This document shows positions 22,068-47,921 of a DNA stretch of 64,000 nt, one piece after another. The stretch is from IMG/VR virus record IMGVR_UViG_3300025858_001097; one strand, 5' to 3'. How positions within the stretch are numbered: the stretch's first letter is position 1; every line of letters begins with the position of its first letter. This DNA comes from a virus. Lineage: Duplodnaviria; Heunggongvirae; Uroviricota; Caudoviricetes. Made by a program: the position numbers and the translations under genes. Below the pieces are notes generated by a model. The model was not told where the DNA came from and searched no databases. It was given only the letters and a program-made list of their open reading frames with translations.

Positions 22068-25000
22068 TTATATTTCAGTGTTGTTAGCAGAAACATAGGA
22101 GTATTCAATGACATCAACAGTATATTTCAATTGAAGTTTATAACTTGGCGATGGATCCCATCCAGTAGCACTCCTTAAATTATTTTTTAATAATAGATAC
22201 GGTTTACTGCTATATATTAGAGCTTCCGCATCTATATCATTAGGACCTATTTGTCCTTGTGTATCTATCGATGCGTGACGACCCGGAGATGGTGTTTCTG
22301 AATTATACTTAACCCAATACCCCGAATGTTGAACTGTTTTAGTATCTGTTACATAATTAGTATAGCTACCAGTTTGATCTACAAAGACGTTGAAACGATA
22401 TTCTCTCATCGCTGCCAATGAATAATCGATTGCTGTCATTTGTGAAGTAGTGCCAGTATCCATTAAGTGATCCATATAGTAGTAACAATTAACCTTAACA
22501 GAGAATCCACTAGTTCCATTTCCACCTGTAACTCCGTGTGTTGTGGATAAGTCTATTTTACTTTGTGAAGCCCAAGCTGTGGCCCAACTAAACGGAGGTA
22601 TATCATTTACATAATAATACGTTACTCCAATTCCAGAGGTTCCACTACTGCCTGTTATTCCTGATGTTCCACTAGTTCCTGAAGTGCCACTAACGCCACT
22701 AGTTCCACTGGTGCCATCATTTCCAGATGTTCCGCTTGTTCCTCTAGCTCCAGATGTTCCGCTAGTTCCACTACTGCCTTGTTTTCCAGATGTTCCACTA
22801 GTTCCACTAGTGCCACCTGTTCCACTGGTTCCTGATGTACCTCCAGTTCCACTAGTTCCACTACTACCTGTTATTCCAGCGGTTCCGCTAGTTCCTGATG
22901 TACCGCCAGTGCCGCTAGTTCCACTACTGCCTTGTTTTCCAGATGTTCCACTAGTTCCACTTGTACCGCCTGTGCCTGAAGTACCACCAGTGCCATCATG
23001 TCCAGATGTTCCGCTTGTTCCACTACTACCATCATTTCCAGATGTTCCACTTGTACCGCCAGTACCATTTGTTCCTGATGTACCTCCAGTTCCACTAGTT
23101 CCACTACTACCTTGTCTTCCAGAAGTACCACTGGTTCCACTTGTACCGCCTGTACCATTTGTTCCTGATGTACCTCCAGTTCCACTGGTTCCGCTACTAC
23201 CATCATTTCCAGATGTGCCTGAAGTACCACCTGTTCCGCTAGTTCCAGAAGTACCACTACTACCATCATTACCAGATGTTCCACTGGTTCCGCTACTACC
23301 ATCATTTCCAGATGTTCCGCTAGTTCCACTACTACCATCATGTCCGGATGTTCCACTAGTTCCACTAGTTCCACCTGTGCCATTTGTTCCTGATGTACCA
23401 CCAGTTCCACTAGTTCCACTACTGCCTTGTTTTCCAGAAGTACCACTTGTGCCACTAGTTCCACCCGTACCATTTGTTCCTGATGTACCACCAGTTCCAC
23501 TGGTTCCACTACTTCCATCATGTCCTGATGTGCCTGAAGTTCCTCCAGTACCACTAGTTCCACTACTGCCATCATGTCCAGATGTTCCTGAAGTTCCACC
23601 CGTGCCTGAAGTACCGCTTGTACCACCAGTGCCATCATGTCCAGAAGTACCACTAGTTCCACTACTGCCATCGTGACCAGACGTACCTGAAGTACCACTT
23701 GTTCCACTAGTTCCTGATGTACCACTTGTTCCTGATGTACCACTACTGCCATCGTGACCAGACGTACCTGAAGTACCACTTGTTCCGCTTGTACCACTAC
23801 TTCCATCATGTCCTGATGTACCTGAAGTTCCTCCAGTACCTGAAGTTCCACTACTTCCATCATGACCAGATGTGCCTGCTGTTCCTGAAGTACCACCAGT
23901 ACCATTGGTTCCTGAAGTTCCGCCCGTTCCTGATGTACCACTACTACCATCATTTCCAGATGTTCCACTAGTTCCACCAGTTCCGTTTGTTCCTGAAGTT
24001 CCACCAGTTCCACTAGTTCCACTACTCCCTGAAGTACCGTTTGTTCCAGAAGTGCCTGAAGTGCCTCCAGTTCCACTTGTACCACTACTACCTTGTTTTC
24101 CAGAAGTACCACTTGTACCACTACTACCAGAAGCACCTGAAGTGCCTGAAGTTCCTCCAGTTCCACTAGTTCCACCTGTTCCATTTGTTCCTGATGTCCC
24201 ACCAGTTCCACTAGTCCCACTACTTCCTGTTAAACCTGAAGTTCCGCCAGTTCCTGAAGTTCCTCCTGTTCCCGAGGTACCACTACTACCTTGTTTTCCA
24301 GAAGTTCCGCTAGTTCCTGAAGTTCCTCCTGTTCCGCTGGTACCTGAAGTTCCACCAGTGCCACTAGTTCCACTACTACCATCGTGTCCAGATGTTCCAC
24401 TTGTTCCACTAGTTCCACTACTTCCTGAAGTTCCTCCAGTTCCACTAGTTCCACTGCTTCCAGAAGTTCCACTAGTCCCAGAAGTACCACTAGTACCTCC
24501 AGTACCACTAGTTCCACTACTACCTTGTTTTCCAGAAGTTCCGCTGGTTCCTGAAGTACCGCTTGTGCCGCCTGTTCCGCTAGTACCTGAAGTACCACCT
24601 GTACCACTAGTTCCACTACTGCCATCGTGTCCCGAAGTACCACTAGTACCTCCAGTTCCGCTAGTTCCACTACTACCATCATGTCCAGATGTTCCACTAG
24701 TTCCACTGCTACCTGAAGTTCCTGAAGTACCATTTGTTCCACTTGTACCTGAAGTTCCACTTGTACCACTACTACCTTGTTTTCCAGAAGTACCATTTGT
24801 ACCACTTGTACCACTACTACCTGAAGTTCCACCAGTTCCAGAAGTACCGCCAGTTCCATTTGTTCCTGAAGTGCCTCCAGTTCCGCTAGTTCCACTAGTT
24901 CCACTAGTTCCATCATGACCCGATGTTCCCGAAGTTCCACCTGTACCAGATGTTCCTGATGTCCCGCCTGTTCCGCTTGTTCCACTACTTCCATCATGAC

Positions 25001-28000
25001 CCGATGTTCCTGAAGTGCCACCCGTGCCTGAAGTACCACCTGTACCAGATGTTCCTGATGTCCCGCCTGTTCCGCTTGTTCCACTACTTCCATCATGACC
25101 CGATGTTCCTGAAGTGCCACCCGTGCCTGAAGTACCACCTGTGCCACCAGTTCCACTAGTTCCACTACTTCCAGAAGTTCCACTAGTTCCACTACTTCCA
25201 GAAGTTCCGCTTGTTCCACTACTACCATCGTGGCCAGAAGTTCCACTAGTTCCAGCAGTTCCACTTGTGCCAGAAGTGCCACCTGTTCCGCTTGTACCAC
25301 TACTTCCATCATGTCCAGATGTACCTGATGTTCCACTTGTTCCGGAAGTACCACCTGTTCCACTTGTACCACTACTTCCATCATGTCCAGATGTACCTGA
25401 TGTTCCACTTGTTCCTGCTGTACCTGATGTTCCACTTGTACCGCCTGTACCTGAAGTTCCACTACTACCTGATGTTCCACTCGTGCCACTAGTTCCCGAA
25501 GTACCACTACTACCTTGTTTTCCAGAAGTACCACTTGTACCACTAGTTCCACTACTTCCTGAAGTTCCACCAGTTCCAGAAGTACCACCTGTTCCATTTG
25601 TACCTGATGTACCACTTGTCCCGCTAGTTCCGCTAGTCCCACTACTACCATCATGTCCAGATGTTCCAGAAGTTCCAGAAGTACCACCTGTTCCGTTAGT
25701 TCCTGAAGTACCACCTGCTCCACTAGTTCCACTACTTCCATCATGACCTGAAGTTCCAGAAGTACCACTTGTCCCGCTAGTTCCGCTAGTCCCACTACTA
25801 CCATCATGTCCAGATGTTCCTGAAGTTCCAGAAGTACCACCTGTTCCACTAGTTCCACTACTTCCATCACGACCTGAAGTTCCTGAAGTGCCGCCTGTTC
25901 CGTTAGTTCCTGAAGTACCACCTGTTCCACTAGTTCCACTAGTTCCGCTTGTTCCACTACTACCACTAGTACCGCCAGTTCCGCCTGTACCAGAAGTACC
26001 ACTTGTTCCCGATGTGCCACTGCTACCATCATGACCGGAAGTTCCACTAGTTCCACTTGTTCCACTAGTTCCACTACTACCATCATGTCCAGAAGTACCA
26101 CTAGTTCCTGAAGTACCACCTGTTCCACTAGTTCCTGAAGTGCCGCCTGTTCCACTTGTACCACTGCTACCATCAACGCCCGAAGTTCCAGAAGTTCCTC
26201 CTGTACCTGATGTTCCATTTGTCCCACTTGTGCCTCCAGTGCCTGAAGTACCACTACTACCAGATGTGCCTGAAGTTCCTCCAGTACCACTAGTTCCACT
26301 ACTACCTTGTTTTCCAGAAGTACCACTAGTTCCACTACTTCCAGAAGTTCCTGAAGTGCCAGAAGTTCCCCCAGTGCCACTTGTTCCTCCAATACCACTA
26401 GTTCCACTACTTCCAGAAGTTCCTGAAGTGCCAGAAGTTCCCCCAGTGCCACTTGTTCCTCCAATACCACTAGTTCCACTACTTCCATCATAACCACTTG
26501 TTCCCGAAGTTCCTCCCGTACCTGATGTTCCTGAAGTACCACCTGTACCACTAGTTCCACTACTTCCATCATGACCACTTGTTCCAGAAGTGCCACTGCT
26601 ACCACTTGTACCGCTTGTTCCGCCAGTACCAGAAGTGCCACCTGTTCCACTAGTTCCACTAGTACCGCTACTACCATCGTGTCCTGATGTACCACTTGTT
26701 CCTGAAGTTCCTCCAGTACCACTAGTTCCGCTAGTTCCTGAAGTTCCACTACTTCCATCGTGACCAGAAGTACCACTAGTTCCACTAGTTCCGTTTGTTC
26801 CTGAAGTTCCACCAGTTCCACTACTTCCTGTCGCACCTGATGTTCCAGAGGTTCCGCCGGCACCGCTAGTTCCTGATGTACCGCCAGTTCCACTAGTTCC
26901 ACTACTTCCTCCTGTACCTGATGTGCCACTAGTTCCAGAAGTTCCACTCGTACCACCAGTTCCACTAGTTCCACTACTACCTTGTTTACCGGAAGTACCA
27001 CTTGTACCACTACTTCCAGAAGTTCCCGAAGTGCCTGAAGTTCCTCCAGTACCACTTGTTCCTCCAGTACCACTAGTTCCACTACTTCCTGTTGCGCCAG
27101 AAGTTCCAGATGTTCCGCCTGTTCCAGATGTACCACTAGTTCCACCTGTTCCAGATGTACCGCTACTCCCATCGTGACCTGAAGTACCTGATGTACCTGA
27201 AGTACCACTTGTTCCTCCTGTTCCTGAAGTTCCTCCAGTTCCGCTAGTCCCACTACTTCCTGAAGTTCCGCTAGTCCCACTTGTTCCTGAAGTTCCACCT
27301 GTGCCATTTGTTCCACTAGTACCACTTGATCCTGATACTCCACTTGTTCCACTAGTTCCTCCAGTTCCACTAGTTCCACCTGTTCCACTAGTTCCAGAAG
27401 AACCAGACGTACCACTTGTTCCGCTAGTTCCCGAAGTACCACTACTACCTTTTGCGCCCGAAGTTCCACTAGTTCCAGATATACCACTAGTTCCACCTGT
27501 ACCTGATGTACCGCTCGTGCCGCCAGTTCCGCTAGTCCCGCTACTTCCACTTGTACCACTACTACCAGATGTTCCATTAGTTCCTGAAGTACCACCAGTG
27601 CCATTCGTGCCACTCGTACCTCCAGTTCCTGAAGTACCACTACTACCTGATGTTCCACTAGTTCCACTACTTCCAGAAGTTCCACTAGTTCCACTAGTTC
27701 CAGAAGTGCCACTGCTACCTGATGTACCGCTAGATCCAGAAGTACCACTAGTTCCTGATGTACCTGAAGTTCCACTTGTTCCTGAAGTACCGCCTGTTCC
27801 ACTAGTACCGCTACTTCCTTGGGCTCCACTAGTTCCACTGGTTCCACTTGTACCCCCAGTACCGCTTGTTCCTGATGTCCCGCCTGTTCCACTAGTTCCA
27901 CTACTACCTTGAGCCCCACTAGTTCCTGAAGTACCACTGCTACCTTGTGCTCCGCTGGTTCCACTTGTACCACCAGTTCCGCTAGTTCCACTACTACCTT

Positions 28001-30764
28001 GAGCCCCGCTTGTTCCTGAAGTACCACCAGTACCACTCGTACCACTTGTACCACTTGTTCCCCCAGTACCACTAGTTCCACTACTACCTGATGTTCCACT
28101 AGTTCCACTACTTCCAGAAGTGCCTGAAGTTCCACCAGTTCCGCTTGTTCCAGATGAACCAGAAGTACCACTACTGCCCTGAGCTCCTGAAGTTCCAGAT
28201 GTACCACCAGTCCCAGATGTTCCACTAGTTCCGCCAGTTCCGCTAGTTCCACTACTTCCTGAAGTACCTGATGTTCCACTACTACCAGATGTTCCCCCCG
28301 TACCTGAAGTTCCGCTAGATCCAGATGTTCCTCCTGACCCGCTTGTACCAGATGTTCCACTTGTACCGCCAGTTCCGCTAGTTCCACTACTACCTTGAGC
28401 TCCACTAGTTCCACTCGTGCCACTAGTTCCTGAAGTTCCACTACTACCTTGAGCTCCACTAGTTCCACTTGTTCCGCTAGATCCGCTAGTTCCACTAGTA
28501 CCGCTTGTGCCCGATGTACCTGAAGTTCCACTAGAACCACTTGTACCGCTGGTTCCACTGATACCAGTCAATCCACTAGTTCCACTTGTTCCTGAGGTGC
28601 CCCCAGTTCCGCTCGTACCGCTAGATCCAGAAGTACCACTACTACCAGAAGTACCTGAAGAACCTGATGTTCCGCTAGTTCCACTACTACCTGATGTTCC
28701 ACTTGTTCCAGACGTACCACTAGTCCCGCTAGTACCTGAAGTTCCACTAGTTCCACTGGATCCTGAAGTTCCCCCAGTGCCACTAGTTCCACTACTACCT
28801 TGAGCTCCACTAGTTCCAGAAGTCCCACTACTACCTGATGTTCCACTTGTTCCAGAAGTACCACTACTACCCGATGTTCCAGATGTACCACCAGTCCCAG
28901 ATGTTCCACTACTTCCACTAGTCCCTGAAGTTCCTGATGTTCCAGACGAACCACTCGTTCCTGATGTTCCTCCTGTACCTGATGTTCCTCCGGTTCCACT
29001 ACTTCCTTGTGCTCCACTAGTTCCACTGGTTCCTGAAGTTCCGCTACTACCTGTTAAACCACTGGTTCCACTAGAACCACTAGTACCACTACTACCACTA
29101 GTTCCTGATGTTCCGCTTGTACCACTGCTGCCAGATGTTCCACTAGTACCACTACTTCCTGAAGTTCCACTAGTACCACTAGTTCCTGATGTTCCGCTTG
29201 TACCACTGCTGCCAGATGTTCCACTAGTACCACTACTTCCTGAAGTTCCACTAGTTCCGCTACTACCACTAGTTCCAGATGTACCACTACTACCTTGTGC
29301 TCCACTAGTTCCACTACTACCAGTTTCTCCTGATGTTCCGCTGGTTCCGCTTGTACCTGAAGTTCCACTGGAACCAAAACCACTAGTACCAGATGTTCCT
29401 AAACCAGCATCAGTATAAGTAAAAACAATAGGTTCGTCTAATATAAAATTGTTATTTGAATCTATCGGTGTAACATCTAATGTCCACCAAGATCCATTAT
29501 CTGTTTTAGCATCTAAATAAAAAGTTGCAAATTTAGTAGAATCGTATTCATCGAATATTCTGATTCTAGACATTCCATTGGCATTAAGACTACTTAACCA
29601 AGAACTTATATCAACACCATCTTTACTTGTCTGACTTATGTATATTTGAGTTACTGAACCGTATACAGTATTATCAAATTTTAAATATCCAGATAGAGGA
29701 TTTGATGCTGTTGTTCCTGTTAAGAAATAATATGGTTGGCTATCACCTCCAAATATTCCAGATAAACCAGAAGATCCAGGAGAACCCATACCTGATGTTC
29801 CACTAGTTCCACTTACACCACTACTTCCATAAAACCATCCATCAACACCAGATGATCCTGAAGTCCCACTACTTCCAGTTCCACCTTGAATATAAGATAT
29901 TAAATACGATTTCCCGTTTGTAGCTGAACCTCCTCCTGATGCGTAAACTGAAAATCCAGTTATTTCATAAAAATTGCCACCTAATCCAAGATTAACACTA
30001 TTAATGGGAACATTATATATGCCTACAACTGAAAGATTTTCTCTCTCTTCTATTTTTAATACGCCTTGAATATTCCACGAACTTAACCAATTATTTACAA
30101 GATCTCCATTCGCGTCCCATTTATTTATTCTTATATTTGTTACAGCCCCTAAATTTGAATTATTTATGTAGAATTTTCCATTCCCAGGAGTTGATGTACT
30201 ATTATCATAAACCCATTTACGCGTAGCTCCACCATAACCACCATCTATACCGCTACTTCCACTAGTTCCACTACTACCTCCGAGTCCTGATGTACCACTT
30301 GATCCACTAGAGCCTGATGTACCTGAAGATCCTGCTTCGCCGCTACTTCCACTTGTTCCGGATGTACCACTTGTGCCACTTGTTCCTCTACCGCTTGTTC
30401 CGCTTGTGCCACCTGTTCCACTCGTACCTCCAGTTCCACTGGTTCCGCCAGTTCCGTCTCTGCCGCTGCTACCACTTGATCCATCTCTACCACTACTACC
30501 ACTTGTTCCATCAGCTCCGCTTGATCCAAAGAAAACACCATCAACACCCGATGTACCGTCTTTTCCAGATGTGCCACTAGTTCCACCTCCACCACTTCCT
30601 GAAGATGTCGCACCAGTACATGGCAAATAATAAATATTTCCCCACTCGTCCTTTTGCCAAAGGCCGCAAAAACCATCTATAAAATCTTGACCTAAGTATA
30701 TATGCCCCGGATCTGGATTACCAATTAGTTTCGGGTCTACTCTTTGGATTTTTTTGAAACTCAT
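22068..30764 (-). CDS. giant collagen-like fibre protein 3 (2898 aa)
   Basis: Conserved N-terminal domain MSFKKIQRVDPKLIGNPDPGHIYLG. About 2250 residues of uninterrupted Gly-X-Y (mostly GTS/GSS, punctuated by GHD/GKQ/GND/GRD triplets). C-terminal globular domain of about 185 aa. Confidence 0.85.
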   Translation of the reverse strand: MSFKKIQRVDPKLIGNPDPGHIYLGQDFIDGFCGLWQKDEWGNIYYLPCTGATSSGSGGGGTSGTSGKDGTSGVDGVFFGSSGADGTSGSSGRDGSSGSSGRDGTGGTSGTGGTSGTGGTSGTSGRGTSGTSGTSGTSGSSGEAGSSGTSGSSGSSGTSGLGGSSGTSGSSGIDGGYGGATRKWVYDNSTSTPGNGKFYINNSNLGAVTNIRINKWDANGDLVNNWLSSWNIQGVLKIEERENLSVVGIYNVPINSVNLGLGGNFYEITGFSVYASGGGSATNGKSYLISYIQGGTGSSGTSGSSGVDGWFYGSSGVSGTSGTSGMGSPGSSGLSGIFGGDSQPYYFLTGTTASNPLSGYLKFDNTVYGSVTQIYISQTSKDGVDISSWLSSLNANGMSRIRIFDEYDSTKFATFYLDAKTDNGSWWTLDVTPIDSNNNFILDEPIVFTYTDAGLGTSGTSGFGSSGTSGTSGTSGTSGETGSSGTSGAQGSSGTSGTSGSSGTSGTSGSSGTSGTSGSSGTSGTSGTSGTSGTSGSSGTSGTSGSSGTSGTSGTSGSSGTSGSSGTSGLTGSSGTSGTSGTSGAQGSSGTGGTSGTGGTSGTSGSSGTSGTSGTSGSSGTSGTGGTSGTSGSSGTSGTSGTSGSSGTSGTSGAQGSSGTSGTGGTSGSSGTSGTSGTSGTSGTSGTSGTSGSSGTSGTSGSSGTSGSSGTSGSSGTSGTGGTSGTSGTSGLTGISGTSGTSGSSGTSGTSGTSGTSGTSGSSGTSGTSGAQGSSGTSGTSGTSGTSGAQGSSGTSGTGGTSGTSGTSGSGGTSGSSGTSGTGGTSGSSGTSGTSGSSGTSGTGGTSGTSGTGGTSGTSGAQGSSGTSGSSGTSGTGGTSGTSGSSGTSGTSGSSGTSGTGGTSGTSGTSGTGGTSGTSGAQGSSGTSGTGGTSGTSGAQGSSGTSGTSGAQGSSGTSGTGGTSGTSGTGGTSGTSGTSGAQGSSGTSGTGGTSGTSGTSGTSGTSGTSGSSGTSGSSGTSGTSGTSGTSGSSGTSGTSGSSGTSGTGGTSGTNGTGGTSGTNGTSGSSGTSGSSGTSGTGGTSGTSGTGGTSGISGTSGTSGAKGSSGTSGTSGTSGTSGSSGTSGTGGTSGTGGTSGTSGVSGSSGTSGTNGTGGTSGTSGTSGTSGSSGTSGTGGTSGTGGTSGTSGTSGTSGHDGSSGTSGTGGTSGTSGTGGTSGTSGATGSSGTSGTGGTSGTGGTSGTSGTSGSSGTSGTSGKQGSSGTSGTGGTSGTSGTSGTSGTGGSSGTSGTGGTSGTSGAGGTSGTSGATGSSGTGGTSGTNGTSGTSGTSGHDGSSGTSGTSGTSGTGGTSGTSGTSGHDGSSGTSGTSGTGGTSGTGGTSGTSGSSGTSGTSGHDGSSGTSGTGGTSGTSGTGGTSGTSGYDGSSGTSGIGGTSGTGGTSGTSGTSGSSGTSGIGGTSGTGGTSGTSGTSGSSGTSGTSGKQGSSGTSGTGGTSGTSGSSGTSGTGGTSGTNGTSGTGGTSGTSGVDGSSGTSGTGGTSGTSGTGGTSGTSGTSGHDGSSGTSGTSGTSGTSGHDGSSGTSGTSGTSGTGGTGGTSGSSGTSGTSGTSGTGGTSGTNGTGGTSGTSGRDGSSGTSGTGGTSGTSGTSGHDGSSGTSGTSGTSGTSGTSGHDGSSGTSGAGGTSGTNGTGGTSGTSGTSGHDGSSGTSGTSGTSGTSGTNGTGGTSGTGGTSGSSGTSGTSGTSGKQGSSGTSGTSGTSGTSGSSGTSGTGGTSGTSGTAGTSGTSGTSGHDGSSGTSGTGGTSGTSGTSGTSGHDGSSGTSGTGGTSGTSGTAGTSGTSGHDGSSGTSGTSGSSGTSGTSGSSGTSGTGGTGGTSGTGGTSGTSGHDGSSGTSGTGGTSGTSGTGGTSGTGGTSGTSGHDGSSGTSGTGGTSGTSGTGGTSGTSGHDGTSGTSGTSGTGGTSGTNGTGGTSGTGGTSGSSGTSGTNGTSGKQGSSGTSGTSGTSGTNGTSGTSGSSGTSGTSGHDGSSGTSGTGGTSGTSGHDGSSGTSGTGGTSGTSGTGGTSGTSGTSGTSGKQGSSGTSGTGGTSGTSGTSGTSGSSGTSGTGGTSGSSGTSGTSGTSGHDGSSGTSGTGGTSGTSGTGGTSGTSGTSGKQGSSGTSGTGGTSGTGGTSGLTGSSGTSGTGGTSGTNGTGGTSGTGGTSGTSGASGSSGTSGTSGKQGSSGTSGTGGTSGTSGTNGTSGSSGTSGTGGTSGTNGTGGTSGTSGNDGSSGTSGTGGTSGTNGTGGTSGTAGTSGHDGSSGTSGTGGTSGTSGHDGSSGTSGTSGTSGTSGHDGSSGTSGTSGTSGTSGTSGTSGTSGHDGSSGTSGTSGHDGTGGTSGTSGTGGTSGTSGHDGSSGTSGTGGTSGTSGHDGSSGTSGTGGTSGTNGTGGTSGTSGTSGKQGSSGTSGTGGTSGTNGTGGTSGTSGTSGHDGSSGTSGTSGNDGSSGTSGTSGNDGSSGTSGTSGTGGTSGTSGNDGSSGTSGTGGTSGTNGTGGTSGTSGTSGRQGSSGTSGTGGTSGTNGTGGTSGTSGNDGSSGTSGTSGHDGTGGTSGTGGTSGTSGTSGKQGSSGTSGTGGTSGTSGTAGITGSSGTSGTGGTSGTSGTGGTSGTSGTSGKQGSSGTSGTSGARGTSGTSGNDGTSGTSGVSGTSGTSGTSGITGSSGTSGIGVTYYYVNDIPPFSWATAWASQSKIDLSTTHGVTGGNGTSGFSVKVNCYYYMDHLMDTGTTSQMTAIDYSLAAMREYRFNVFVDQTGSYTNYVTDTKTVQHSGYWVKYNSETPSPGRHASIDTQGQIGPNDIDAEALIYSSKPYLLLKNNLRSATGWDPSPSYKLQLKYTVDVIEYSYVSANNTEI
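22626..29400 (-). repeat. about 6.8 kb of continuous 9-bp (Gly-X-Y) coding repeat
   Basis: GGN ACN AGN periodicity throughout; approximate bounds. Confidence 0.8.
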
Positions 30765-30771
30765 TTAAAAA

Positions 30772-30813
30772 GAAAAACGGTTTTTTATACCTATATATAA
30801 AAAACCGTTTTTC
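30772..30813 (-). terminator. perfect 15-bp inverted repeat (A5-CGG-T6) with a TATATA-containing loop, between the pncA-like gene and the fibre 3 start
   Basis: gaaaaacggtttttt [atacctatatat] aaaaaaccgtttttc; T-runs on both strands; ends 9 nt before the fibre 3 ATG. Confidence 0.5.
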
Positions 30814-30841
30814 TTTTTGGTGTGGAGTTGTTATGAAGTTA

Positions 30842-31432
30842 TTATCTTTGCATATCAAAGAAAATTTTATATTTAAATATTTCATCGTCAGATAGAAAAA
30901 TATCCAGATCCATTGAATTTATAATCATAACGCCGTCTTTAGCCATATCTTCGACGATGGGAGTCATTTGATCGAAAAAACGTGTTGCATCTACAATCAA
31001 AAAAGTTTTGAAAAATACAGAGCAATCTTTGGCCGTTTCTTTTACATTGAAATCTCCTGGAAGTCCAACTACATAAACTTCTTTTACATCGTTTTTATCT
31101 AAAAAATCATAAAGATTTAAACCATCTTCATTAACTCCAACAAAACCGCTCAAATCTATGGTTTTCTCACCTTTTGTGAAAATAGTAGTTTCTTTTAAAT
31201 CTAAATCTGGATGAAAATCTGCGCCTTCAGTATTTTGAATACAATGAGGAGGAATTTCATCAGTGAAAGATTTATGATTGACTGGATGCCAATCTCTTGA
31301 TGCTACAGTTAAATCAAATTTATCTTTGATTTCGTTAATTATAGGAATAATTCTATCTCCGAAAGGAACAGGATATGTTCCACCGGGCATAAAATCCTTT
31401 TGAACATCAACAATAAATAAAGCTCTTTTCAT
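30842..31432 (-). CDS. isochorismatase-family protein, PncA (nicotinamidase)-like, with the catalytic Cys position apparently substituted
   Basis: IVDVQKDF (Asp), SRDWHP...PPHC metal-binding residues and TKGE (Lys) are present. The segment aligning to the PncA GIATDHCV reads GLPGDFNV. Confidence 0.55.
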   Translation of the reverse strand: MKRALFIVDVQKDFMPGGTYPVPFGDRIIPIINEIKDKFDLTVASRDWHPVNHKSFTDEIPPHCIQNTEGADFHPDLDLKETTIFTKGEKTIDLSGFVGVNEDGLNLYDFLDKNDVKEVYVVGLPGDFNVKETAKDCSVFFKTFLIVDATRFFDQMTPIVEDMAKDGVMIINSMDLDIFLSDDEIFKYKIFFDMQR

Positions 31433-31433
31433 A

Positions 31434-31799
31434 TTATTCTAATCTAATAACACCACTATCAACTTCAAATGTTTTCTTTTCTACCAGAGTGTCTGGCAAA
31501 ACAAAAGTTTTTCCATCCTGTAAAACCATAACAGTTCCTTTCTTTGGAAAATGAACAGGATTTTTGCATGTTTCGCTATGGAATAAAAAGGAATTAAATG
31601 CTGGTTTTAATGAAAGACGTCCATTGGTTTTCAAATAACCCATGTATTCGTGCCCTTCAATTTCATAAACATATAAGGTGATCCCATTCACGACAACATG
31701 TCTTTTAGCATTCATTTCTTTATCAATATCAACTTTCTGTTTACAACCAGTAAACAGAAAAAGACACATTATTACTAATAATCCTAAAAATTTTTTCAT
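31434..31799 (-). CDS. lipoprotein (121 aa)
   Basis: Signal peptide with lipobox LFTGC. Confidence 0.5.
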   Translation of the reverse strand: MKKFLGLLVIMCLFLFTGCKQKVDIDKEMNAKRHVVVNGITLYVYEIEGHEYMGYLKTNGRLSLKPAFNSFLFHSETCKNPVHFPKKGTVMVLQDGKTFVLPDTLVEKKTFEVDSGVIRLE

Positions 31800-31819: not shown

Positions 31820-32800
31820 TTAATAGTTAAAAAAATTCTTTTTAACTATATCTATAGCTTTTTGTGTTCTTTCTTCCCAATCAGTTCCACTCACAACCTC
31901 CATTTTTAAATTTTTAGATTTAAAAAAGTTGTATTGGAAATCACCAAGATCATCTCTTTTTTCTTTTGAAAGGCGAGTTCCATCTTGTATATAAGGGGCA
32001 TCTTTATCTAAGAAAATGTATAAATCGAATTTGTTTGCTTCTTCAATCCAATTATCGAATACGGGTTCAAGATCGAAGAAAAATTTAGAATAAGATTTTG
32101 TTGTATTTAAATTTGTGTCGCTAAATAATATCCTATTAGCGTGTTTTATTTCTTCGATTATGCCACTAGCATGAGCTTTTCCAACATTCATGATATCTTT
32201 TATAGTTGTATTGTCTGAATGTTCGATTATATCTCTACCCCACTCTTTTACATAAGATGTTTGAAAAACTTTTGACAATTTTTCTGTAAGAACTGTTTTT
32301 CCAGTACTTTCTGTTCCACACAGACATATTTTCTTAACAAAATAAGGTCTTGCTACAAGTGATATATAATCCCAATACTTGAAAGGATTTTCTCTTATCT
32401 GAGTGCCACTTATTGGAACAGTTTCACGTTTTTCGTCAAATATTACATATCCACAATTCATATACTCAGCAACATACTCTGCGTAAGGTTCTGAAGCAAA
32501 CACAACATCTACATTATCTAAAGTTTTACTTATGTGATCAGCCCATAGTTTAGATACTTCCCTATCAGAAACAGAAGTATATGGAAGTTTTACATCGGTA
32601 TATCTTATAATAACTTTATAATCATCCCTATATTTATCCGTAAGCCAGTGAAGTCTCACGTAACCTGGTATGGTTTCTTTTTCGTCATTCATACATAAAA
32701 GAACATATAAGAGATCACATTTCTCTTTAGCAAAATTTATAAGTGCTTCGTGACCTAAAGAAATTGGTTCTGCTTTTAAAATTATCAGTCCTCTTATCAT
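31820..32800 (-). CDS. nadR: NadR-like bifunctional NMN adenylyltransferase / ribosylnicotinamide kinase (no HTH domain)
   Basis: N-terminal cytidylyltransferase-like PISLGHEAL (H/TxGH); central P-loop GTESTGKT of the RNK domain; 326 aa. Confidence 0.7.
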   Translation of the reverse strand: MIRGLIILKAEPISLGHEALINFAKEKCDLLYVLLCMNDEKETIPGYVRLHWLTDKYRDDYKVIIRYTDVKLPYTSVSDREVSKLWADHISKTLDNVDVVFASEPYAEYVAEYMNCGYVIFDEKRETVPISGTQIRENPFKYWDYISLVARPYFVKKICLCGTESTGKTVLTEKLSKVFQTSYVKEWGRDIIEHSDNTTIKDIMNVGKAHASGIIEEIKHANRILFSDTNLNTTKSYSKFFFDLEPVFDNWIEEANKFDLYIFLDKDAPYIQDGTRLSKEKRDDLGDFQYNFFKSKNLKMEVVSGTDWEERTQKAIDIVKKNFFNY

Positions 32801-33636
32801 TCAAATATTTTTTTTATATTTTTGAAGTTGTTATTTATAATCAGATTATAATCATAATATTTCTTGGATTCATTCATTTTAATTTCATTAATATTTCTTT
32901 TCTTATTCCACAAATAACTTGATTTTATTTCAAAGACTATGTTTGTATTTTTTATTCTATAGTCTATATAATAATTATGTTCTTTTCCGCTATCATCAAA
33001 ATAACTTATACGAGGTCCTCTTTCAATCAAATCAAATTTACCGATGGATTCAACAAATTTTAAAAATTTTAATTCATAACTGCTTTGATAATCTATGCCA
33101 TTATATTGTTTTATTCTTATTCTTCCCCATCCACTATTAGGTTTTCTTCTCCCTTCTTTAAAAGCTTTAATGGCTGCATCACTCATTCTTTTTTTAATAT
33201 CATCAGATAGTTTAGTCCCCTTTCTTTTTTCTGCCATTTTTATCCATCCTTGTTTTTCTTTTATTTTTTGTTTAGAAGATTCCCAAGTAAAAGGGTTTCC
33301 GTTCTCATTCAACCATTTTTTAAGCCCTATTTTAGCATTATTGTTTGGTTTTCCAAAATTTCCGTTTCTATCTCCTTTATTTTGACATTTGGTACAAAAA
33401 TGTTCATTTTTATCTGGTTTTAGATCTCTTATTCTTCTTTCGAATATTACACCACAATCATCACATTTTACTTTTATAAATTTTATTCTATAATCTCTTT
33501 TTGATTTTAGTAATGACCAATGAACTAAAAAAGGTTCGTTTATATTTGGTCTATAACCGAGTGTTTTTTTCCATCTGTCGGGTTGAGTGTAATGTGTTAA
33601 GACAACTTCAACGTTTTCATATTCTTTTATATACAT
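32797..33636 (-). CDS. putative homing endonuclease (zinc finger, NUMOD3-like motif and PD-(D/E)XK-like C-terminus)
   Basis: CDDCG...CTKC; KGTKLSDDIKKRMSDAAIKAFKEG resembles NUMOD3; C-terminal D...E.K pattern (IDYRI...IVFEIKS). Confidence 0.4.
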   Translation of the reverse strand: MYIKEYENVEVVLTHYTQPDRWKKTLGYRPNINEPFLVHWSLLKSKRDYRIKFIKVKCDDCGVIFERRIRDLKPDKNEHFCTKCQNKGDRNGNFGKPNNNAKIGLKKWLNENGNPFTWESSKQKIKEKQGWIKMAEKRKGTKLSDDIKKRMSDAAIKAFKEGRRKPNSGWGRIRIKQYNGIDYQSSYELKFLKFVESIGKFDLIERGPRISYFDDSGKEHNYYIDYRIKNTNIVFEIKSSYLWNKKRNINEIKMNESKKYYDYNLIINNNFKNIKKIFE

Positions 33637-33702: not shown

Positions 33703-34128
33703 TCATTCACTCCAATCTTCTTCACCATACGGATCCAAATCATTAATTATTCTTTTATTGAGTTTATATTCTCTTTTATGTTCTCTCTTTTTTTCTTTCC
33801 ATTCACTATAACTTCCACAATGATGATGTCTTATCATATTACATATATCTGGGAAACTTCTAACTACTTTAGTTGGCAAACTATATATATTTATATCTGA
33901 TGATGCACAATTATCTAATAGATGTAATATATAATCAATAACATAATCTTCATTTTGATCTTTATAATGTTTTAAAAATTTTATAATGTCATCGACATTC
34001 TTCCAGCTTAACTCGATTTTTTTTAAATCTAATATAGCTTGTGCGGCTTCTTCGCGTGTTAAATCTGTTCGATAACCATATTTATCGAAATCTTTAAAAT
34101 CTTCAAATTTAGATAAATTACTTATCAT
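33703..34128 (-). CDS. hypothetical protein with a C-terminal DPYGEEDW motif
   Basis: 141 aa. The motif is shared with 60039..60482 and with the disrupted ORF at 63661..63881. Confidence 0.5.
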   Translation of the reverse strand: MISNLSKFEDFKDFDKYGYRTDLTREEAAQAILDLKKIELSWKNVDDIIKFLKHYKDQNEDYVIDYILHLLDNCASSDINIYSLPTKVVRSFPDICNMIRHHHCGSYSEWKEKKREHKREYKLNKRIINDLDPYGEEDWSE

Positions 34129-34131
34129 ATG

Positions 34132-34452
34132 TCATTTAACTTTTTTAGTTTCATAAATATAACACTCATACCATCTTGAAGATACTCCATATTCACATAA
34201 TACATTTTCAAGAGATTGTTTGGGGAATTTAGTAAAAGATCCTTTTATTTCCAAGAACCAAGAATCTGGCACATATTTTTCTTTTATCCATTCTCTTGGA
34301 TCTTTTTCCCATCCATTTAATATATTATACCAACCTTCACTTTTATATTTATTTGTGAGTTCTCCAACGAGAATTTCTTCGCCATTATTATGTTTAAGAA
34401 TTATAATATCTTCAATTTCAATTTCGTCAAAACTTACTTTTTTCAATTTCAT
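34132..34452 (-). CDS. hypothetical protein (106 aa)
   Basis: ORF track. Confidence 0.5.
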   Translation of the reverse strand: MKLKKVSFDEIEIEDIIILKHNNGEEILVGELTNKYKSEGWYNILNGWEKDPREWIKEKYVPDSWFLEIKGSFTKFPKQSLENVLCEYGVSSRWYECYIYETKKVK

Positions 34453-35018
34453 TGTTGTTTTTTATATATTTTTGTCCAATTAATTAACCCGTAGACGGCT
34501 ACAAAAGTTATCACAATATATTCTAAAGATACTAAATATATTCCTTTTGAATAGAATAACCACACGCTTAACATATCCAATAATATCCATAGAAACCATC
34601 CATATAAATATTTTTTAGATAGAAATACCACAGCAAATATACTCATTGTTGTGACAATAGCATCTAGTAAAGCAAATTGTGGTTGAAAGAATCCCAATAC
34701 ATAACCTCCTAATAAACAAAGAATTAGTATAACAATTCCAGTTATTATTACATTTTTTAATGAAGATATTTTTATCTTTTTACCTATATCTCTTCCCCAA
34801 TATGTCCAACCGTATATTGAAACAATCGTAAAAAAGACTTGAAGCGCAACTTGTCCAAACAATTGATTTTTTAAAAAAAGTATAAAGAAAAATATCTGTC
34901 CGATTATACCAACAGGCCAATTCCAAATTTTGTTTCTAGCAGCCAAAACTACTGCAGCAAAAGAAAACAATGTTCCAAATAATTCTAAATAAGAAAGTGT
35001 ATATCCTAGTAATACCAT
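34449..35018 (-). CDS. pnuC: nicotinamide riboside / NMN transporter PnuC
   Basis: Multi-TM protein with a PnuC-like N-terminal region (FGTLFSFAAVVLAARNKIWNWPVGIIG...IYGWTYW). Confidence 0.75.
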   Translation of the reverse strand: MVLLGYTLSYLELFGTLFSFAAVVLAARNKIWNWPVGIIGQIFFFILFLKNQLFGQVALQVFFTIVSIYGWTYWGRDIGKKIKISSLKNVIITGIVILILCLLGGYVLGFFQPQFALLDAIVTTMSIFAVVFLSKKYLYGWFLWILLDMLSVWLFYSKGIYLVSLEYIVITFVAVYGLINWTKIYKKQQ

Positions 35019-35473
35019 TATTTATTTATCTTAATATACTTACCAATAATAGCTGATTTATCCAACACATGTCCATCAATTTCTTTCAAAAGTTCGGCTT
35101 TAGTATATCCTTCTTTGTTCAAAAAACAATCTAAAGCAAATATCTTAAAGAAATATCTATGAACACCATTTGGAGGGCATGGACCTTTATAATCAAATTG
35201 TTTATAGTCATTTTTTCCAAATAAAATTGGTGGTTGTGAATCTCCTTTTGTAAAGTGTTCATTAAACATAGTTGTAGTTGGTGGAATATTATATACAATC
35301 CAATGTACCCAATCTCCAACTGGAGCGTCGGGATCATCAACTAATAAAGCTAGACTAACAGTCGCTTTTGGAAAACCACTCCATTCTAGCTGAGGTGATA
35401 CATTTACTCCCTCGCAAGTAAATTTGGAAGGAATAAATTCACCATGTCTAAACGCGTTACTTCTTATTTCCAT
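35018..35473 (-). CDS. YbhB/YbcL-family phosphatidylethanolamine-binding (PEBP) protein
   Basis: LVDDPDAPVGDWVHW signature. Confidence 0.8.
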   Translation of the reverse strand: MEIRSNAFRHGEFIPSKFTCEGVNVSPQLEWSGFPKATVSLALLVDDPDAPVGDWVHWIVYNIPPTTTMFNEHFTKGDSQPPILFGKNDYKQFDYKGPCPPNGVHRYFFKIFALDCFLNKEGYTKAELLKEIDGHVLDKSAIIGKYIKINK

Positions 35474-37541
35474 CTTTTTCTTTTAACATTATTTTTAATT
35501 GAGCAAAACAATTAAATGGTACTCCTACAAAATAAAGTGGTTGATCTCCACTCCAATTTAATTGACCGCTCGCGAAATATTTTTGATTTGTTATATTATT
35601 AAAATAGATATTAAAATCTATCCAGTTCCAACTAACACCCAATTTTCCATTTAAAGTGTAATAAGAATCAATAGTTTCGGCTAAATCCGTCCCCAACCAT
35701 TTTGTATATCCGATGATACTTCCATCTTGATATCTACAAGATAAACCTACTACAAACCATTTATATTTATAATGACCTTCTATGTTACCTATCCATTTTG
35801 GAGATAATATTGGTTTATTTATTTGATTATTAGATTGTTTTATACCACAATCATTATACGAACCATTTACACCAATTCCTAAACCAAAATCCCATTTGTA
35901 TTTGAAATCTGCTTCAATTCCTCTTCTATAACTCTGTTTTACGTTATCGTGTAATGGAACTCCACTCATACCTATTTTACCATTTAAAACAATTTCATTA
36001 CTAAAATTCATATGGAAAAAATTGAAATTTATATAAAAATTTTTTTCTACTACACGAATACCAAGTTCATTATCTCGCGATTGTTCGGAATTAAGATTGT
36101 TATAAACAGCGTTACCAAGAGTATCACATGGTAAGTAGTTATACCCATTTAATACATCATTTCTTGATGGTTCACGATTATTTACACCATAACTATAATA
36201 AAACACAGTTCTATTTAAATTGTAATCTATTCCTAAATCATAATTTATAAAATTCCAATGTAAATCTGGCATAACAACATTATAATGAGGAGTAAAGTTC
36301 TCATCATAAGAAACATCGCCTTTATATTTAAAATCTGTATATCTATATTGAACATCGCCAAAAAGATTCAGATCTTTCCAAACATTATATTTAACTTTCA
36401 AATAACTACTTATTTCATTTCTATATCCAGTGTTTGTGTATTGATATCCATAAATATCATTATTCCCTATATGTTCTCTATCATATGTAAAACCGTGAGT
36501 TCCTAAATCGAAATAAAATCCTTTTATATTTTTTGAAAAATTTAAATATCCACCATACCAATTAGATTTAAAAGTATATTTGTCTATACCATAATTAATA
36601 TTATTCTGTAAGAAATTCTGTAAATCAAAAGTATAATAGCCGTGAAGATAATTATAATAAAGAGCATAATTCAATTTCGTTTCTTTATTGAAATTTATTA
36701 TGTGGTGAAATTGAACGTGTGTCTGAGCAAAATTATCTTGTTCTTTGTCTGTCGCACCGTTTGTTTTCCTATCTTCTCGAACTTTTTCCAACGGAACGCC
36801 CAACCACGCTAACTGATTATTTTGGGCTCCTATAAAAGATACTATTTTGAATGTATGTTTTTTTACATTAAAATATGAATTTAAAAATAAACTCTGTCCT
36901 TTATTACTGGAATGATATTTATATCCTTTTGTTTCTATATCTGATAATTGAAAGTAATAACCGCCACGTTTAAAATTTTGATCGACCTCTGCTCCAATAT
37001 TAAAACTATTGAAAGATCCGTATCCAAATTTAGCCGTCGCTTTATCATAAGTAGGGAAATGGGAATCAAAATTTAAACCACCTCCAAAACAAGATGATCC
37101 ATTTTTTGTTAAACTATTACCTCTTTGTATTTGAATCAAATCTAATGAATTAAAGAAATCTGGATAGTTTGAAAAATACAATCCTTGATCTTCGGGCTCA
37201 TTCATTGGCACTCCGTTTAGAGTGAAATTAATACGAGTTTGATCAATTCCTCTCATACGAATATAAGAATATCCATAGGGGCTACCAGCATCAGAATAAG
37301 ATGTGATAGAGGGTGTTGTAATAAGAATATCAGAAGGCTCTTGCCCGTGATATTTAAAATTTATTTCGTTCTTATTTAAATTTGTAAAAGTAATAGGAGT
37401 AAGATGATTCGCCTTGTATGGCGCTGTAATATTAACCTCTTTTAATTCTATCGTGTCCTTACCAATATGATAAATAGTGTCTTGACTATAACCCCCGATA
37501 GCGAAGATAAATAGAATAATAATAAATAATGTTCTTTTCAT
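35457..37541 (-). CDS. TonB-dependent outer-membrane receptor
   Basis: Signal peptide ending GGYSQD; plug-domain motifs (IQIQRGN..., RGIDQTRINFTLNGVPMN); long beta-barrel region; 694 aa. Confidence 0.7.
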   Translation of the reverse strand: MKRTLFIIILFIFAIGGYSQDTIYHIGKDTIELKEVNITAPYKANHLTPITFTNLNKNEINFKYHGQEPSDILITTPSITSYSDAGSPYGYSYIRMRGIDQTRINFTLNGVPMNEPEDQGLYFSNYPDFFNSLDLIQIQRGNSLTKNGSSCFGGGLNFDSHFPTYDKATAKFGYGSFNSFNIGAEVDQNFKRGGYYFQLSDIETKGYKYHSSNKGQSLFLNSYFNVKKHTFKIVSFIGAQNNQLAWLGVPLEKVREDRKTNGATDKEQDNFAQTHVQFHHIINFNKETKLNYALYYNYLHGYYTFDLQNFLQNNINYGIDKYTFKSNWYGGYLNFSKNIKGFYFDLGTHGFTYDREHIGNNDIYGYQYTNTGYRNEISSYLKVKYNVWKDLNLFGDVQYRYTDFKYKGDVSYDENFTPHYNVVMPDLHWNFINYDLGIDYNLNRTVFYYSYGVNNREPSRNDVLNGYNYLPCDTLGNAVYNNLNSEQSRDNELGIRVVEKNFYINFNFFHMNFSNEIVLNGKIGMSGVPLHDNVKQSYRRGIEADFKYKWDFGLGIGVNGSYNDCGIKQSNNQINKPILSPKWIGNIEGHYKYKWFVVGLSCRYQDGSIIGYTKWLGTDLAETIDSYYTLNGKLGVSWNWIDFNIYFNNITNQKYFASGQLNWSGDQPLYFVGVPFNCFAQLKIMLKEKDGNKK

Positions 37542-38056
37542 TTGTGATATTTTTCGTTAAATTTAAAACTCCATTCTGGATTTGGCCTGTATTTAGTGTT
37601 TAGAAAATATTTATATACATATTTCCAATCCTTTTTTGGATTAAATCCAGCCTTGTCTTCCCAAAGAGAATTGAAATATGGTTTTTTGTCATAAAATCCA
37701 AAACTTCCTTTAGCGTCAGAAATTTCTGGATTATCATTCACGTACTTAAAATATATACCATCTTCTTCGAATTGTTTCATATACTTTTCAATCTCGTTTT
37801 TATAAGAAGATGTGAATATAAACAATATCATATCACGGCGGTTCTTTGTAAGATATTGTAAAGTTTCTTTGGCATAAGGATAGTAATTTATTCTAAATTC
37901 ACCTTCACCTTTTTCAGATTTACGATAATCTGGCTCGGATATAACTCCATGAATATCAAAGCAATGATAGGTTTCATACCACTGCCTTTCTTTGGCGTGT
38001 TTAAACATTTTATCCATCCAAACAAGTAAAGATGGTTTATAGCAAGGATTTAGCAT
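37538..38056 (-). CDS. hypothetical protein, weakly HAD / 5'(3')-nucleotidase-like
   Basis: CFDIHGVI resembles HAD motif I (DxDGV) but with His at the second Asp position. Confidence 0.35.
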   Translation of the reverse strand: MLNPCYKPSLLVWMDKMFKHAKERQWYETYHCFDIHGVISEPDYRKSEKGEGEFRINYYPYAKETLQYLTKNRRDMILFIFTSSYKNEIEKYMKQFEEDGIYFKYVNDNPEISDAKGSFGFYDKKPYFNSLWEDKAGFNPKKDWKYVYKYFLNTKYRPNPEWSFKFNEKYHK

Positions 38057-38193
38057 ATAAATATTTTTTTATATAACTTTTTTATTTTTAAGCCATATAA
38101 TTCGAACAAAATTAAATATTTTTTTATTAATAAAAAAATTTTGTAACCGATAAGAAAAATTAGCGTCTAATCTAGAAAATAAAAACATAAAAT

Positions 38194-38487
38194 ATGAACA
38201 GATTGTATAGAGCATCTAAAGATCGCATTTTCGGTGGAGTTTGCGGAGGAATTGGGAAGTATTTCGATATTGATCCAGTTATTATAAGACTTATTTGGCT
38301 ATTGTTTGCCCTTTGTGCTGGCTTTGCTATTTTCATTTATATTATAGCATGGATAATAATTCCAAATGAACCTTTGGAAATAAAACCAGAAAAACCTATT
38401 AAAGAAAAGGAAGTTAAAGAAGACCCAATAGAAGAGCAGACCTTTGAAAAGCCAAGAGCTAGAAAAAAGGGAAATAATACAAAATAA
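38194..38487 (+). CDS. PspC-domain membrane protein
   Basis: LYRASKDRIFGGVCGGIGKYFDIDPVIIRL followed by a TM helix is the classic PspC domain. Confidence 0.7.
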   Translation: MNRLYRASKDRIFGGVCGGIGKYFDIDPVIIRLIWLLFALCAGFAIFIYIIAWIIIPNEPLEIKPEKPIKEKEVKEDPIEEQTFEKPRARKKGNNTK

Positions 38488-47252: not shown

Positions 47253-47921
47253 TTAATTCATATTTAATTCTTTTAACAGATTGTCTATGTTATACTGAGC
47301 TTCTTCTAAAAGTTTGACCTCCGGTATAATGATATTATTACCAACTTTTCTTACGCTATCAAATAAGATTTTTTCCTGATTGGTATAAATGGAAGCTGAC
47401 GCTGTATATAAAACAGCTGATATTTCAGGATTAGATTTTTCTACTTGACTGGCTAAAAAATTTAACTTCTCAATCAACTTGTCCTTCTTCATATTTATCT
47501 GCTTTTTAGTGTTGCAATTATAACAAAGAGTTTGATAATTATCAATATTATTTTCTCCGCCCTTACTTTTTGGTTTTACATGATCTTTTGTGAGCATTAC
47601 TTCATCTCCGTTCTCATTGTATCCATATAAATTAAAGTGCCATTTGTAATTTTCTTTTACTTCGTTGGCGTGTCTTTCCAAAGCGAAGAATTTTCCTTCT
47701 AGACCACATTCAACGCAGGATACACCACTTTTTTTAAATGTTTGATATCTGTGAGATGCCAAACTAACTAAATTACCCAAATATTCTTTTACTGTTTTGG
47801 GCACTCTTTCTTTTCCTTTTTGATTTCCTTTTTTAATCACAATAGGATCTGGAACAAAATCCAAAACTTCATTTATGGAAAAAGTTCCAATTCTTATATA
47901 CCGGTTGTTTTTATTTTTCAT
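47253..47921 (-). CDS. HNH endonuclease
   Basis: HVKPKSKGGENNIDNYQTLCYNCN matches the HNH motif. Confidence 0.65.
   Translation of the reverse strand: MKNKNNRYIRIGTFSINEVLDFVPDPIVIKKGNQKGKERVPKTVKEYLGNLVSLASHRYQTFKKSGVSCVECGLEGKFFALERHANEVKENYKWHFNLYGYNENGDEVMLTKDHVKPKSKGGENNIDNYQTLCYNCNTKKQINMKKDKLIEKLNFLASQVEKSNPEISAVLYTASASIYTNQEKILFDSVRKVGNNIIIPEVKLLEEAQYNIDNLLKELNMN

Follow-up and report, generated by a model that had tools for sequence, protein, structure and literature searches.

A nicotinamidase-like protein without the catalytic cysteine in a megaphage NAD-precursor island: a candidate pseudoenzyme

The supply of nicotinamide adenine dinucleotide (NAD) is now recognised as one of the main points of contention between phages and the bacterial defences that deplete it (cases in point are NARP1, NARP2 and, in 2026, NARP3). 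Nicotinamidases form a thioester on the cysteine of their catalytic triad, with a metal that binds the pyridine nitrogen and a pocket tryptophan that stacks on the pyridine ring. The nicotinamidase PncA, together with PncB and the NAD synthetase NadE, makes up the Preiss-Handler module. NARP3 is the NAD-restoring pair of PnuC and NadR, a two-gene system of Enterobacteriaceae phages (PMC13464706); PncA, PncB and a TonB receptor go unmentioned in the paper that describes it. TonB-dependent receptors have already been reported in megaphages (PMC9723777), and PncA is not mentioned in a survey of viral NAD and ADP-ribose (NAD-ADPr) functions. Phage PncA genes, the phage pair of PnuC and NadR and the megaphage receptors are therefore known already; what seems to be new is a set of PncA derivatives without the catalytic cysteine, linked to the absence of PncB, and this set appears to be undescribed, as we found no description in the literature of Cys-less or pseudo-nicotinamidases or of such a link. 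Here we analyse one of them, P0001, which is encoded at the end of a NAD-precursor island in a 64,000-nucleotide stretch of DNA (the window) from a virus of the Caudoviricetes, IMG/VR record IMGVR_UViG_3300025858_001097. Judged from its sequence and its genomic setting, and with a probability that we put at roughly 0.6, this protein is a pseudoenzyme that descends from the megaphage nicotinamidase, has lost its catalytic activity and is kept for a non-catalytic role.

The island is similar to NARP3 in that it encodes PnuC and a NadR-like bifunctional enzyme, but here the pair is part of a longer set of genes that also includes those for an outer-membrane receptor and the Cys-less PncA, and the signature of the nicotinamide mononucleotide (NMN) adenylyltransferase (NMNAT) domain of its NadR is atypical. 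With the PncA enzymes of bacteria and archaea (EC 3.5.1.19; structures 3pl1, 1ilw and 2wt9) the window protein shares the fold, 35-39% identity and the Asp, Lys and metal ligands, all in place; it differs from them in having Asn for Cys, Ile for Trp, Leu for Tyr or Phe and Pro for the Ala of the cis-peptide, and in having no PncB in the window. A clade of megaphage PncA proteins is closer still and likewise closes the island, following the receptor, PnuC, NadR and a small open reading frame (ORF), with giant structural genes immediately downstream, but this clade keeps the Cys, the Trp and a 19-residue insertion, and its loci carry PncB and, with one exception, NadE.

That the protein belongs to the nicotinamidase family is clear from several searches. 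The gene (591 nt, with its start ATG at 31430-31432 and its stop TAA at 30842-30844) gives a product that matches PF00857 (isochorismatase-like) in Pfam with an E-value of 3.1e-11 and 44.1 bits against a cut-off of 27, and its best matches in the PDB by phmmer are solved nicotinamidases, namely 1ilw (P. horikoshii PncA, E 1.8e-30), 29iv (E 4.4e-27), 2wt9 (A. baumannii, E 1.5e-24) and 3pl1 (PncA of Mycobacterium tuberculosis, Mtb; E 1.3e-23). The NCBIfam equivalog NF008623 gives 90.6 bits, below its curated cut-off of 174, and is non-discriminating here, since the Cys-intact megaphage protein P0005 also falls under the cut-off with 134.8 bits. An AlphaFold2 (AF2) model built with 16 sequences reaches a pLDDT of 82 and a pTM of 0.82; its alpha/beta core is confident, and the pocket-forming loops, namely residues 15-21, residues 57-60 and the block 50-70, are modelled with low confidence. 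The best structures found for this model by Foldseek are 3pl1 (E 1.3e-15), 2wt9 and 1ilw, with E-values of about 1e-15 and TM-scores of 0.73-0.80. An identity as an isochorismatase was considered and rejected: all top matches in the PDB and Foldseek searches are nicotinamidases, and isochorismatase-like entries enter these lists only at rank 12 onward, with 20-23% identity. The closest relatives, P0002-P0030, are 50-60% identical and form a huge-phage clade which includes P0005, encoded by the 735-kb uncultured phage LR756503.

A preliminary description, made from the sequence by eye, had proposed that Asn replaces the nucleophilic Cys, with DFNV in place of DHCV, and that the Asp (VDVQKDF), the metal-binding His cluster (DWHP...PPHC) and the Lys are conserved. 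Both proposals are borne out. In the phmmer alignments GLPGDFNV pairs without a gap with GVATEYCV, GLALDFCV, GIATDFCV and GIATDHCV of the four solved enzymes, which places Asn129 on the nucleophile, and two multiple alignments agree with these four. The nucleophile column of a MAFFT alignment of 121 homologues holds Cys 118 times, Asn twice and Ser once; a profile alignment of the kind suggested earlier, made here with a hidden Markov model (HMM) on 347 homologues, also puts Asn129 in that column, where 323 of the homologues have Cys. The catalytic codon is TGT or TGC in the relatives, two base changes apart from the AAT of the window. Asp9, Lys87, Asp47, His49, His53 and His63 are all present, and the last four of them make up, at the level of the sequence, the metal-binding cluster of Mtb D49, H51, H57 and H71.

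Only two cysteines are left in the protein, C64 in PPHC and C137 in KDCS. The second of these, the Cys of the nearby DCS, had been named as one that might occupy the catalytic position after proper alignment; it does not take the place of the nucleophile, since active homologues carry it as well, and a relocated nucleophile was rejected altogether, with C64 and C137 equally conserved in Cys-intact homologues. The chance that a sequencing or assembly error or a rare strain polymorphism produced the Asn is negligible: the 591-nt gene is base-identical in ENA, JGI and Logan assemblies, for which ten contigs from three independent sources were read, and the replacement of Cys takes two base changes and is accompanied by several other changes and a deletion. 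The gene is also identical at the DNA level in the loci L001, L002 and L003, the first two of which are the window's phage from other samples, so that there is no within-population signal for tests of selection.

The changes outside the nucleophile affect the pocket. Ile stands at position 60 in place of the pocket Trp that precedes PPHC, Leu94 replaces the residue equivalent to Phe/Tyr103 (Mtb Y103), Phe128 replaces the Tyr of the megaphage clade, and the 19-residue insertion which precedes PPHC in that clade is absent; Phe14, at the position of Mtb F13 in the pyridine-binding pocket, is retained. At the cis-peptide and oxyanion position the Ala has become Pro125, and the same change recurs in other Cys-less relatives, as would be expected at a strained cis-peptide if the stability of the fold, and not catalysis, were under selection. 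Because the thioester mechanism of the family needs the Cys of the triad, Asn at the nucleophile position should abolish the deamidation of nicotinamide.

Loss of the thiol need not mean loss of all chemistry. The true isochorismatases EntB and PhzD are members of the superfamily that lack the Cys and are nevertheless active, and the window protein might likewise have become a thiol-independent hydrolase that depends on Asp, Lys and metal, all of which it keeps; the simultaneous change of several pocket residues could then represent a re-specialisation for another substrate. We regard this as very unlikely, as the best sequence and structure matches are all nicotinamidases, the combination of residues is found in one sequence only, the rate of change is accelerated, and the close Cys-less relatives are degraded in various ways (Asn, Gly, Ser or Glu in the catalytic column, loss of the metal site), which looks like decay rather than like a site newly conserved.

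The preliminary description itself had proposed either an enzyme with altered chemistry or a protein that binds nicotinamide without hydrolysing it. The non-hydrolysing half of the latter proposal is expected to hold, with the thiol nucleophile gone and the Asp, Lys and metal ligands kept; the binding half is not supported by the altered pocket. In its fuller form the proposal would have the metal together with Asp and Lys hold nicotinamide or nicotinate, in order to buffer or sense the nicotinamide released by defence systems that cleave NAD (NADase systems). It is in keeping with such a binder that all six residues, Asp9, Lys87, Asp47, His49, His53 and His63, have been kept at about 58% identity to the clade, that purifying selection persists and that the gene lies within a NAD-precursor island. 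We nonetheless consider a binder unlikely, given the replacement of Trp by Ile60, of Phe/Tyr by Leu94 and of Ala by Pro125 and the loss of the 19-residue segment, and given that the AF2 model is unconfident exactly at the pocket loops; moreover, it would seem quantitatively implausible for one protein to sequester a millimolar-scale metabolite stoichiometrically. Sequestration of nicotinamide as a counter-defence, which had also been put forward, is unsupported, although it might still apply to the window protein with its kept metal ligands; the sister protein P0031 of locus L004 and most other Cys-less relatives are kept although the metal-binding segment is lost, which speaks against a nicotinamide site as the conserved role of the Cys-less set.

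The genomic context suggests that a step of the pathway has been lost, and not that a new function has been gained, because neither PncB nor NadE is found in the window or in the Cys-less loci that were fetched. Seven Cys-intact loci reach far enough upstream for the comparison: L006 (from LR756503), L007/L013, L017, L093, L095, L096 and L098. PncB is present in 7/7 of them, between the PspC gene (where there is one) or the genes for proteins of about 490 residues and the gene for a 172-residue protein or its equivalent, and NadE in 6/7, the exception, L017, having genes for an HD-domain protein and a methyltransferase at that place. Searches by tblastn with three queries each for PncB and NadE gave no match in the 64-kb window, in L001 and L002, in the sister locus L004 or in L099, which encodes the Cys-less protein P0206, and despite this absence the flanking genes p498, p484, PspC, the 172-residue protein, the TonB-dependent receptor and PnuC are syntenic. 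A Cys-less PncA-like gene stands without PncB in three of three loci (window, L004 and L099), and a Cys-bearing PncA stands with PncB in seven of seven. The proteins of the two other Cys-less loci are more strongly degraded. P0031 in L004 is 158 residues long, has the same AAT codon for Asn and has lost the whole DWH...PPHC metal segment, and NadR has been deleted from this locus, leaving a 20-residue remnant and an 85-residue fusion ORF. P0206 in L099 has Gly in place of Cys, no longer has the Asp, Lys or metal ligands and carries Pro at the cis-peptide position; in this locus receptor, PnuC and NadR are present, the receptor being split into two ORFs.

The sister locus L004 also allows the rate of change to be estimated. 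Between it and the window the amino-acid identity is 83% for p498, 84% for p484, 87% for the 172-residue protein, 76% for PnuC and 72% for the TonB-dependent receptor, compared with 49% overall, or 58% over aligned residues, for the PncA-like protein, which makes this the most diverged shared gene except for a small lipoprotein-like ORF. Because the Asn codon is common to both loci, this divergence postdates the loss of the nucleophile. Rates were calculated by NG86, as YN00 was unusable on most pairs owing to saturation. The synonymous divergence (dS) between window and L004 is about 1.0 in every gene, and the ratio of non-synonymous (dN) to synonymous divergence (omega) is 0.27 for the PncA-like gene, 0.07-0.17 for most of its neighbours and as high as 0.375 for the small lipoprotein-like ORF. 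The ratio of dN(PncA) to dN(PnuC) is 2.1 for window and L004 compared with 0.62-0.75 in three Cys-bearing pairs, a roughly three-fold acceleration; all pairs other than window-L004 and L095-L098 have a dS far above 1 and were used for relative dN only. In a neutral simulation with the base composition of the window, the ORF stayed open in 0.5% of runs when each lineage had accumulated 0.25 substitutions per site and in 0.04% when it had accumulated 0.5, and against this expectation it is open in both the window and the L004 lineage. The PncA-like gene is still under purifying selection and is not drifting neutrally.

These figures also bear on the idea that the gene is a functionless remnant heading for deletion, its reading frame open by chance. 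The partner enzymes are absent, the gene is the fastest-evolving of the larger genes in the island, the NMNAT motif of NadR in the window is degraded as well, and L004, with its 158-residue protein, its missing metal site and its deleted NadR, displays progressive erosion, all of which would suit such a remnant. It is quite improbable, however, as omega is about 0.27 and not 1, a neutral ORF is retained in at most 0.5% of runs yet two to three lineages keep it, the core of the AF2 model is confident, and the stop-to-start junction with the ORF before it has been conserved.

A pseudoenzyme kept for a non-catalytic role is therefore the reading that we prefer, because the confident core and the kept metal ligands go together with an accelerated rate and yet with purifying selection. 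The ancestral island would have combined uptake, by the TonB-dependent receptor and PnuC, with two routes to NAD: an amidated one, in which a NadR-like enzyme converts nicotinamide riboside (NR) to NMN and on to NAD, and the deamidated Preiss-Handler route from PncA through PncB to NadE. PncA may have become a pseudoenzyme once its downstream partners PncB and NadE were absent; nicotinamide would no longer have been turned into nicotinate after the loss of the Cys, and the island would have continued as an uptake system with a NARP3-like route from NR to NAD by means of PnuC and NadR. The replacement of the residue, the lack of PncB and NadE in the window and the fetched loci, the acceleration and the remaining constraint are observed; that activity was lost, that events ran in this direction and that there is a non-catalytic role are what we infer. 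Since the NMNAT signature of NadR is atypical in the window and NadR is lost in L004, the whole island may be eroding in this lineage.

Several points weigh against this account. All six catalytic and metal residues other than the Cys are kept, which hints that the site of the window protein may still do something. The values of dS are at or near saturation, which makes omega rough, and two sequences alone define the Asn lineage. Likewise, the ten loci are not phylogenetically independent, and the three Cys-less ones may amount to one or two events. The view is one of 64 kb (contigs up to 97 kb), and PncB and NadE could be encoded elsewhere in the genome or be supplied by the host. Finally, with a set of 45 sequences all 100 of 100 neighbour-joining (NJ) bootstraps pair P0001 with P0031 as sisters, and this support falls to 40% when all degenerate, long-branch variants are added.

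Cys-less proteins of the megaphage type are not confined to the window and its sister; a search of representatives and a profile search brought up others. P0139 has Asn in the nucleophile column, P0123 and P0273 have Gly, and P0240, P0242, P0274, P0277 and P0272 have Ser; P0122 (Gly) and P0246 (Glu) lack the Cys but keep the metal site. Most of the other Cys-less proteins are also without metal ligands and often without the Asp, the window protein being the least degraded. P0124 is a protein of 964 residues with four degenerate tandem PncA-like domains, none of which has Cys in the catalytic column, where Phe, Ile, Val and Ile stand. P0124 matches the query in 7 separate stretches, and P0121 (798 residues) in 4. 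P0206 and P0031 lie in the same type of island without PncB or NadE, and P0242 and P0277 in another phage setting, away from NAD genes. What is conserved across the set is the core of strands and helices (ALF.V, VGL.GD..VK.TA, T..I.DA, IIN) and the C-terminal half, not the ligand site. In the NJ tree the strongly degraded proteins cluster, and the window protein branches off between this cluster and the clade with Cys; one dead clade of old origin and several independent inactivations are both possible.

Further proteins with Asn at this position were sought. A scan of IMG/VR proteins yielded 6 relatives and a metagenome scan 80 loci, none of them with Asn, a degenerate DNA pattern for GDxNVKET(A/S)KDC had 0 matches in IMG/VR, and a search of 1.84 billion representatives added P0139 alone to the Asn lineage.

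It is conceivable, although we are doubtful, that huge phages have, in their Cys-less PncA-like proteins, a long-lived family of pseudoenzymes with a selected non-catalytic function, such as the sensing or binding of a pyridine metabolite or an interaction with another phage protein in the contest over host NAD. Its members would include the window protein, P0031, P0139, P0123, P0206, P0240, P0242 and P0277, of which some lie far from NAD genes, and the window protein, with its metal site kept, would represent an early stage of the transition.

The loci compared here amount to a natural experiment, in which the nicotinamidase keeps its Cys only where PncB is co-encoded and is Cys-less but constrained where PncB and NadE are absent. 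They offer a testable case of pseudoenzyme formation within the metabolic island of a virus, and they suggest a rule for the annotation of phage "PncA" proteins, which is to check both the Cys column and the presence of the partner PncB. The features of the island are collected in Table 1.

Table 1. Features of the PncA-like gene and of the NAD-precursor island, in window coordinates
Feature	Position	Strand	Basis or remark
PncA-like ORF (P0001, 196 aa; isochorismatase-like fold, Cys-less)	30842..31432	-	ORF list, PF00857, PDB phmmer, AF2/Foldseek
Asn129, codon AAT, column of the catalytic Cys (Mtb C138)	31046..31048	-	PDB alignments, MAFFT, HMM alignment
Asp9, triad Asp, kept (aligns with Mtb D8)	31406..31408	-	Alignments
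Lys87, triad Lys, kept (aligns with Mtb K96)	31172..31174	-	Alignments
Metal-ligand segment with Asp47, His49, His53 and His63 kept	31244..31294	-	Alignments; AF2 confidence low for residues 50-70
Ile60 in place of the pocket Trp preceding PPHC (Mtb W68)	31253-31255	-	Alignments
Pro125 at the cis-peptide/oxyanion Ala position (GLAGD to GLPGD)	31058..31060	-	Alignments
Terminator-like hairpin, 20-bp stem, directly downstream of the PncA-like ORF; marks where the transcription unit ends	30771..30814	-	
121-aa ORF with lipoprotein-like signal (…LFLFTGC); stop abuts the PncA-like start (TAA-T-ATG)	31434..31799	-
NadR-like NMN adenylyltransferase/ribosylnicotinamide kinase	31820..32800	-	Pfam, PDB, NCBIfam
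Endonuclease-like ORF between PnuC and NadR	32797..33636	-	phrog_15137, weak DUF7487
Two small ORFs	33703-34452		Within the minus-strand block
PnuC-type nicotinamide riboside/NMN transporter	34449..35018	-	PF04973, E 1.1e-44
Phosphatidylethanolamine-binding protein (PEBP) family	35018..35473	-	Between TonB-dependent receptor and PnuC
TonB-dependent outer-membrane receptor (Plug and beta-barrel)	35457..37541	-
Conserved 172-aa protein; overlaps the receptor gene, NadE slot empty	37538..38056	-
137-bp intergenic gap at the PncB (nicotinate phosphoribosyltransferase, NAPRTase) position of Cys-intact relatives	38057..38193	.	Synteny
PspC-domain gene, synteny anchor beyond the missing PncB	38194..38487	+
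Two proteins of about 490 aa (p498, p484)	Beyond the PspC gene

The PncA-like gene is the last of a block on the minus strand. The lipoprotein-like ORF directly upstream of it, which has no match in Pfam, NCBIfam or PHROG, is syntenic in L004, L006 and L007, and its stop-start arrangement with the PncA-like gene is conserved. The NadR-like protein matches 8x7f with an E-value of 1.6e-36 and 9x6f with 1.9e-31, the depositors' name for the latter chain being just "nicotinamide-nucleotide adenylyltransferase". At its N-terminus the NMNAT signature GxFxPx(H/T)xGH is LKAEPISLGH, in contrast to the GKFDPLHIGH or GKYEPLTVGH of relatives, so that Gly has become Leu, Phe has become Ala and His/Thr has become Ser; the Walker A motif of the kinase, GTESTGKT, is intact. 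Among the related loci the endonuclease-like ORF is found only in L007, with a 66-residue remnant in L004, and it looks mobile; two more DUF7487 ORFs lie in the window at 57616-59268 (+) and 61385-62275 (-). The PEBP-family gene is in none of the related loci compared with the window. A scan for promoters was uninformative, with 54 sites found against 50 expected.

A TonB-dependent receptor adjoins PnuC in at least seven megaphage loci (it is present in the window, L004, L006, L007, L017, L093, L096 and L099), and this proximity suggests that the phage encodes its own outer-membrane uptake of a NAD precursor. For the megaphage "SusC" receptor the uptake of carbohydrates has been proposed (PMC9723777), which differs from the uptake suggested here. 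The 172-residue protein is the best-conserved of the island, with identities of 87% to L004 and about 70% to the proteins of distant megaphages. Its gene lies, in Cys-intact loci, between PncB and NadE, where a nicotinate mononucleotide (NaMN) adenylyltransferase would be expected; nothing convincing was found for it in the PDB or Pfam, and PHROG gave only a weak match to "phosphoheptose isomerase". PncB itself seems to have been replaced at its syntenic slot by a different type at least once, because the proteins of L093 (2269-3456) and L098 (3940-5139) are 38-40% identical to those of L006 (2247-3422) and L096 (3332-4516), compared with about 70% for the flanking genes.

Other genes of the window lie outside the island. 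Downstream of the PncA-like gene, at 22068-30764 (-), is a collagen-like ORF of 2898 residues that consists of nearly all Gly-X-Y triplets (GTS, GSS, GTG) with globular ends; in L001 its counterpart has 2964 residues and aligns at about 89% with many indels, so that the length varies between near-identical phage samples. A gene for the phosphoribosyl pyrophosphate (PRPP) synthetase Prs (51350-52291) adjoins one for polyphosphate kinase 2 (50487-51347), both on the minus strand, and despite this PRPP synthetase the window yielded no phosphoribosyltransferase of the PncB or NAMPT type. Auxiliary genes that are unusual for a phage encode an M42 aminopeptidase (469-1587), an AMMECR1 protein (3362-3922), an RCC1-repeat protein (17454-18638), an NAD-dependent epimerase (18684-19568) and a radical-SAM-like protein (19572-20507). 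An ATP-dependent DNA ligase (47921-48664) and an SPFH/Band-7 protein (62511-63545) are also encoded.

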